A DNA stretch of 1,009 nucleotides from Escherichia coli (GTDB lineage Bacteria > Pseudomonadota > Gammaproteobacteria > Enterobacterales > Enterobacteriaceae): NCBI RefSeq assembly GCF_003334335.1, contig NZ_QOWQ01000130.1. One strand, given 5' to 3'. Position 1 is the first letter of the stretch, and each line of letters begins with the position of its first letter. The notes beneath the pieces are model-generated. The model searched no databases, was not told the origin of the DNA, and worked only from the letters and a program-made list of their open reading frames with translations. The translations under genes and the position numbers were made by a program. Of the stretch, positions 32 to 109 are shown piece after piece.

Positions 32-109
32 ATGAGAGCGGCGAGACATCAGATTTTCTTTATATATCCGATGTTGAGCTGTTTTATTTGTATACAGATA
101 ATTTTATAG
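32..109 (+). CDS. Hypothetical upstream mini-ORF, 25 aa (MRAARHQIFFIYPMLSCFICIQIIL); could be a leader peptide, a small hydrophobic protein, or non-coding
   Basis: ATG at 32..34 lies 7 nt after a canonical AGGAG at 20..24. The frame runs to TAG at 107..109. The peptide has a basic N-terminus and an 18-residue hydrophobic tail. The region is AT-rich, which biases any frame toward hydrophobic codons, so coding status is uncertain. Confidence 0.25.
   Translation: MRAARHQIFFIYPMLSCFICIQIIL
74..102 (+). promoter_or_regulatory. Candidate sigma70 promoter for the adhesin gene: -35 TTGAGC (74..79), 17-bp spacer, -10 GATAAT (97..102)
   Basis: -35 matches TTGACA at 4/6 and -10 matches TATAAT at 5/6, with optimal 17-bp spacing. 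Predicted start is near 109..110, giving a very short leader. AT-rich DNA produces promoter-like hexamers by chance, and the transcript may instead start further upstream. Confidence 0.3.

Follow-up and report, generated by a model that had tools for sequence, protein, structure and literature searches.

A conserved palindrome upstream of eib adhesin genes of Escherichia coli prophages as a candidate operator

A short palindrome located just upstream of the start codon of eib genes is a real element of an ordinary kind, namely a conserved cis-regulatory palindrome, and no description of it was found in the accessible literature. Across five upstream lineages, no invariant run other than its core exceeds 4 bp, and this core is held at a fixed distance from the ATG. 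With moderate confidence, we read it as the operator of a dimeric helix-turn-helix regulator, overlapping the core promoter and probably repressive. Eib proteins are immunoglobulin-binding adhesins responsible for aggregation, biofilm formation and chain-like adherence, and their regulation is poorly understood. An invariant site of 10-12 bp in the core promoter represents a precise experimental handle, both for mutation and as a bait for the regulator, and the palindrome could predict eib alleles escaping control (e.g., that of locus L032, described below). The finding is useful to a niche field, and the element belongs to a familiar kind.

The window, i.e., the whole stretch of 1,009 nucleotides of E. 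coli DNA analysed here, shares 93.6% identity with the eibA gene of P-EibA, a prophage of E. coli ECOR-9 (AF151091.1). It contains the 5′ part of an eibA-like trimeric autotransporter gene (120-1009, plus strand), the ORF of which starts with an ATG at position 120, continues past the end of the window and encodes a product beginning with the signal peptide MSKKFTKAVLSAAMAGVLFG. A probable Shine-Dalgarno sequence, AGGG (108-111, plus strand), is located 8 nt before the ATG, and a G-rich block occupies the same place in all lineages. The window matches genes annotated as “YadA C-terminal domain-containing protein” in 27 of 5,426 complete E. coli genomes, all of them chromosomal, and a search of plasmids revealed no region homologous to it. 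Within the coding region, positions 747-826 carry 3-4 tandem 21-bp repeats encoding (E/K)LDAQKG heptads, which presumably correspond to the coiled-coil stalk and the copy number of which likely varies between alleles.

In lambdoid prophages, eib is placed after tail genes (J, a tail-fibre gene and a DUF4376 gene) and is followed on its 3′ side by an intrinsic terminator and then by a conserved gene for a 157-aa product, orf-156. According to Hendrix and colleagues, the moron cassettes of lambdoid prophages reportedly consist of their own promoter, a gene and a terminator. Similar to these morons, eib is inserted after tail-fibre genes with its own upstream region and its own intrinsic terminator. 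Unlike a plain moron, however, the eib cassette adds an operator-like palindrome, an RcsAB-box-like element and a downstream NarL/FixJ-like gene. The cassettes are mosaic, in that the types of orf-156 do not follow the upstream lineages.

The preliminary description of this DNA had reported a perfect 8-bp palindrome, TGTATACA (89-96, no strand assigned), with symmetry at 12 of the 14 positions of ATtTGTATACAgAT (86-99). Both statements are exact, TGTATACA having a single match in the window, and a repeat finder showed that the dyad reaches further, to TTATtTGTATACAgATAA (84-101), which is symmetric at 16 of 18 positions, T88/G97 being its sole mismatched pair. The accompanying caution, that an 8-bp palindrome is expected by chance and is weak evidence alone, was justified as well: seven perfect 8-bp palindromes were observed in the window for 4.07 expected from first-order Markov simulations. 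Allowing up to one mismatch, TGTATACA is expected 0.45 times in the window, while a dyad of 18 bp in which no more than one pair is mismatched has a probability of 0.107 in the whole window and of 0.017 in the 119-nt upstream region. By itself and within the window alone, the palindrome is not significant. It is beyond chance because of its conservation across relatives, a kind of evidence that the window by itself does not give.

Conservation at homologous genes, which the preliminary description had put forward as a check, was indeed found. Eib-like genes were gathered via their coding sequence or via the downstream ORF-156 protein, never via the motif, leading to a comparison set of 33 genes with 21 distinct upstream sequences. 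The 10-bp core TTTGTATACA (87-96) is present in 32 of these 33 genes and in 20 of the 21 distinct upstream sequences, always 22-24 nt before the ATG, and the centre of the palindrome lies 27 nt upstream of the ATG. The upstream sequences form five lineages, i.e., A (the EibA type, including the window), B (the EibC/D/E type) and three further types, C, D and E. These lineages are 58-72% identical upstream, with indels, and 63 of the 184 columns of their alignment are invariant. The longest invariant run is precisely the 10 bp of TTTGTATACA, the next longest being 4 bp (P = 0.0014 by column shuffling).

With the invariant A98, these ten positions make up a family-wide core, TTTGTATACA(R)A (87-98, no strand assigned), within which conservation is mirror-symmetric, T87, T88 and T89 pairing with A98, R97 and A96. 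The perfect 12-mer TTTGTATACAAA is found in lineages C, D and E, and a natural G97A variant of lineage A (L021) turns the dyad into a perfect 18-mer. The palindrome is single-copy per locus: 31 matches with at most one mismatch were found in the 305 kb of collected loci, all of which are eib-promoter copies. It is identical among prophages of differing backgrounds. The complete eib phage PhiR12_1 (54 kb) contains a single further near match, which sits in a canonical LexA box upstream of dinI.

The exception is L032 (IMGVR_UViG_2617271340_000011), where TACGTGTGCA takes the place of the palindrome (positions 1856-1865 of this locus). There, the eib-like gene, encoding 506 amino acids with a differing signal peptide, and orf-156 are both intact, and L032 could be a natural “operator-minus” allele. 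A second 8-bp palindrome of the window, GGTATACC (110-117), has the GTATAC core in common with the first, overlaps the Shine-Dalgarno sequence and lies 21 bp from the first palindrome, centre to centre, which corresponds to two helical turns. Lineages A and E retain it. In lineage B, its place is taken by GGATATCC, likewise a perfect palindrome, and in lineages C and D no palindrome occurs there. A shift of (TA)n register, and not selection, may account for the changes at 110-117.

The palindrome had been placed in the spacer of a candidate promoter, overlapping its -10 element. This promoter, made of TTGAGC as the -35 (74-79, plus strand), a 17-bp spacer and GATAAT as the -10 (97-102, plus strand), scores 9/12 and is the best of the window in consensus and position-weight scans, but promoter-like matches are about as numerous in the window as expected by chance (2 for 1.9). 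TTGAGC is lineage-specific, with a spacing that shifts by 3-5 bp, and between lineages the distance separating any upstream TTG from the palindrome varies by 5 bp. GATAAT, in which A98 is invariant, is replaced by AAGAAA, AATAAA or AATCAT in other lineages. In addition, the start that GATAAT implies (around position 109, about 7 nt after) falls within the Shine-Dalgarno AGGG. The placement in the spacer and over the -10 is true of this lineage only, because these -35 and -10 hexamers are not conserved in the others. Hence the idea of an operator in or near the core promoter gains from the conservation of the palindrome, but the promoter frame of 74-79/97-102 in which it was set does not extend to the other lineages.

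Another frame was suggested by a position-weight scan, in which the palindrome's right half, TATACA (91-96, plus strand), would be the -10-like element, with an implied start around position 103. TATACA is without the usual T at -7. Its partner would be a -35-like hexamer, xTGAxx, marked by conserved GA columns, which is CCGATG in the window (68-73, plus strand) and CTGACA, CTGAGA, CTGATG or GTGAGG elsewhere. In the lineages scanned, this hexamer precedes TATACA by 15-17 bp. The alignment also contains a second conserved upstream block, ATCAGATTTTCTT (48-60, plus strand), which is separated from the palindrome by 32-49 bp, depending on the lineage. Within it, the hexamer CAGATT (50-55; CA(G/T)AT(T)-like) has its A at -11 and its T at -7 in every lineage and could be an upstream -10, in which case the palindrome would lie in the leader. 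All three candidate promoters fit the sequence. It is also known that 168 bp of eibG upstream DNA in constructs allows expression sufficient to restore the adherence phenotype (bioRxiv 10.64898/2025.12.25.695649).

In the operator reading that we favour, a symmetric, dimeric helix-turn-helix regulator would dock on the palindrome in the core-promoter/leader region of eib genes, and the bound protein would block RNA polymerase, by repression or as a roadblock, rather than recruit it. Blocking is likelier than recruiting because the palindrome coincides with or follows every plausible -35, a position that is typical of repressors and not of classical activators. The site displays the dyad symmetry of an operator (8/8 positions in the perfect palindrome, 16/18 in the extended dyad) and is conserved above its background, and an operator is preferred over a one-directional promoter element because the latter needs no palindrome. 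We infer protein binding, repression and the identity of the binder, as well as the position of the palindrome relative to the promoter. The operator reading also fits the poor basal expression of Eib, which is weak in wild-type strains, and its conditional up-regulation, a ~3-fold mRNA induction being observed in static culture (PMC4352079). Against it, L032 has lost the palindrome while keeping an intact eib-like gene and the rest of the cassette, a core of 10-12 bp is short for many helix-turn-helix dimers, and the conservation at 91-96 could instead reflect polymerase contacts.

This last point underlies an alternative that we regard as possible, although on the unlikely side, in which the conserved block would be the core promoter itself, with TATACA as a weak -10, TTTG as a -10-proximal upstream element, xTGAxx as a weak -35 and a start around 103, the palindromy being incidental and no dedicated regulator being involved. 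This alternative is favoured by the position-weight scan, where xTGAxx precedes TATACA (or TACAAA) by 15-17 bp in the scanned lineages, including those with indels, in which another TGA hexamer takes the right distance upstream. TATACA as a -10 would also provide a sensible leader of 16-17 nt containing the Shine-Dalgarno sequence, and a weak core promoter is consistent with the poor basal expression of Eib (PMC4352079). However, TATACA is without the near-universal T at -7, and its TG is one base out of register for TGnTATAAT. Furthermore, polymerase contacts need neither the invariance of all ten bases nor a mirror symmetry extending to A98, and the chance that a conserved AT-rich 12-mer is perfectly palindromic is, by our estimate from base composition, ~0.29^6 = 6e-4. 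It is worth noting that a core promoter and an operator could coexist at this place, as operators can overlap a -10.

The remaining explanations are weaker candidates. The element could act in the mRNA, provided that a hexamer such as the CAGATT-like one (50-55) directs a start further upstream. As part of the 5′ leader, UUUGUAUACA would then be bound by an RNA-binding protein or a small RNA, or would influence translation or stability. Consistent with this, the distance from the palindrome to the Shine-Dalgarno sequence and the ATG is fixed while that to the upstream blocks is variable, the conserved block at 50-55 has its A at -11 and T at -7 and, in this lineage, GUAUAC (90-95) is complementary to the GUAUAC (111-116) adjoining the Shine-Dalgarno sequence. 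This reading is nevertheless quite improbable: the consensus folding energy is negligible, without a covarying partner, the single-sequence fold is no better than that of shuffled sequences (z = +0.5), there is no Rfam match and the second GUAUAC is missing from lineages B, C and D, while it is sites in double-stranded DNA that are marked by perfect dyad symmetry. We take IbrB to be ParB-like, and proteins of this type presumably bind palindromes. The palindrome could hence be the target of IbrAB, either bound by IbrB or subject to a silencing that is relieved by IbrAB-dependent DNA modification at GTATAC. IbrB is cited as raising Eib expression (PMC7649339, citing Sandt et al. 2002), and the site is both palindromic and specific to eib promoters. 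However, GTATAC is not over-represented in the whole eib phage (15 observed for 13.3 expected) and an activator site at the position of the palindrome would be atypical, and we consider a role as IbrAB target improbable. It could finally be argued that the block has no function, its 10-bp identity being left from shared ancestry or from cassette recombination, as the cassettes are mosaic and the block is short and lost in L032. This appears very improbable in view of the flanks, both of which have diverged to ~60% identity with indels around a block that is intact in five lineages (P = 0.0014 by column shuffling), and of the coincidence of the surviving invariant block with the palindrome.

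Returning to the operator, several putative binders can be named, each of them individually unlikely: a host winged-helix regulator of the GntR or MarR type, RcdA, IbrB and the NarL/FixJ-like ORF-156. The matches to short published consensus sequences given here were found post hoc among several hundred possible regulators. In other systems, this core has been established experimentally as an operator. The GntR/FCD regulator Atu1419 of Agrobacterium fabrum binds ATGTATACAT at sites that overlap -10 boxes and mediate repression, and the operators of the GntR family share the signature (N)yGT(N)xAC(N)y (PMC7797058). TTTGTATACAAA fits this signature, and its 8-bp core TGTATACA is identical to that of ATGTATACAT; both sites are short perfect palindromes and the same overlap with a -10 is proposed here. 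In contrast, the flanks are TT/AA at eib and A/T at the Atu1419 site, which belongs to another organism, and the site at eib is a putative one. In the annotated neighbourhoods of the collected loci, there is neither the nearby cognate regulator gene that characterizes GntR operators nor any GntR, TetR or MarR gene linked to the eib cassette; a distant host GntR regulator is possible as the binder.

RcdA, a TetR-type biofilm regulator of E. coli, recognizes a box described as TTGTnTACA or TTGTnnACA (PMC3535384), and TTGTATACA (88-96), within the invariant block, matches both forms exactly. Both csgD and biofilm genes are under the control of RcdA, and Eib proteins drive aggregation and biofilm formation in static culture (PMC4352079). 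However, footprinted RcdA sites contain two boxes, inverted or tandem, whereas eib loci have one self-symmetric candidate box each, and chance matches to the RcdA box are common because its consensus specifies 7 bases only. A MarR-type protein was assayed on GTTTGTATACAAAC (PMC12541388). A prophage immunity repressor, which the preliminary description had named among the candidate regulators, is unlikely to be the binder because the site is single-copy and identical across differing prophage backgrounds.

Several other identities of the palindrome were considered and rejected. It is not a LexA SOS box because CTGT (79-82) and ACAG (94-97) are separated by N11 in the window, and not by N8 as in CTGT-N8-ACAG, and because ACAG is not conserved, being ACAA in lineages C, D and E. 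The 11-mer TTTGTATACAG is also found within the canonical LexA box CTGTGTTTGTATACAG upstream of the dinI-like gene of PhiR12_1 (PV340549.1 position 54137, L057), a recurrence which appears coincidental. A lambdoid CI/Cro immunity operator was rejected as well, the site being single-copy, far from cI/cro in the whole of PhiR12_1 and the same across prophage backgrounds. Compared with the consensus sequences of extended -10 and sigma-S-type -10 elements, the palindrome fits neither: its TG directly abuts TATACA, one base off the register of TGnTATAAT, with an A at -7, and the sigma-S type is contradicted by a G at -13 and the same A at -7. A structured cis-regulatory RNA was not retained, given a consensus fold of -3.4 kcal/mol, the sole “structure” of which is the palindrome folding on itself, and a z-score of +0.5 for the single-sequence fold, and an Rfam search at E up to 1 returned no match. 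Likewise, an RNA hairpin formed by the two GTATAC cores and hiding the Shine-Dalgarno sequence would be possible only in lineages A and E. Lastly, the central hexamer TGTATA of E. coli dif and the lambda att core TTTATAC were considered, but the flanking arms do not match what we take to be the dif and att sequences. Literature matches for TTGTATACAA are mostly engineered Gateway att sites.

Besides the palindrome, eib loci share a sequence resembling an RcsAB box. TAAG-N5-TCCTA, which matches the RcsAB box consensus TaAGaatatTCctA (PMC4325325, PMC3950696), was found 138-155 nt upstream of the ATG in 22 out of 22 eib-like loci checked, and has only two other matches, with at most one mismatch, in 110 kb. 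Its coordinates in L001 are 5975-5988, so that it precedes position 1 of the window by 12-25 nt. An additional copy, inverted and ~100 nt before the ATG, is present in lineages D and E. The two arms of lineage A constitute an 11-bp inverted repeat, which the P-EibA record (AF151091) annotates as a “stem_loop”: the right arm, TTCGGAATTTC, occupies positions 6-16 (no strand assigned), and the left arm, just upstream of the window, carries the RcsAB-box-like sequence.

The gene orf-156 (7474-7944 in L001, downstream of eib and outside the window) follows every eib gene, after the intrinsic terminator. The protein has no match in Pfam or NCBIfam, matches a PHROG of unassigned function and belongs to a very narrow family, with 31 relatives among 1.84 billion representative proteins. 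Its profile gives weak but consistent matches to the helix-turn-helix domains of GerE, VraR and LuxR, and its AlphaFold model (pLDDT 91.7) matches full-length NarL/FixJ response regulators, namely FixJ, StyR, RcsB, VpsT and EvgA. Among the partners with which RcsB is known to associate are auxiliary LuxR-type proteins, for instance RcsA and BglJ (PMC3950696, PMC5829831), and ORF-156 may be an auxiliary regulator of the RcsA/BglJ kind. Covariation with the palindrome was looked for in the recognition helix of ORF-156, but this helix, TKTVNTFLY, is invariant, and the palindrome-less L032 has the same ORF-156 as L033. As a candidate target for ORF-156, TAAG-N5-TCCTA would be better than the palindrome. 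Remote homologues of ORF-156 are encoded directly downstream of adhesin or RTX-like genes, or the contig ends before the adhesin promoter, and a profile search with ORF-156 over genome contigs for more distant cassettes returned nothing.

These elements lead to a broader proposal, which we hold to be rather doubtful, in which the eib moron would constitute a portable switch composed of the RcsAB-box-like element (~143 nt upstream of the ATG), the palindrome and the orphan ORF-156, which would pair with RcsB as a new protein of the RcsA/BglJ kind. Surface or envelope signals would then turn on the adhesin via ORF-156 or IbrAB, with the palindrome as the operator. If true, such a three-part switch would make eib a phage-delivered adhesin that is pre-wired into the biofilm signalling of the host.

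A last observation concerns IMG/VR loci L036-L050, in which partial orf-156-like sequences (residues 25-156) are located after tail-fibre genes, without eib and without the palindrome. These sequences are probably remnants of lost cassettes.
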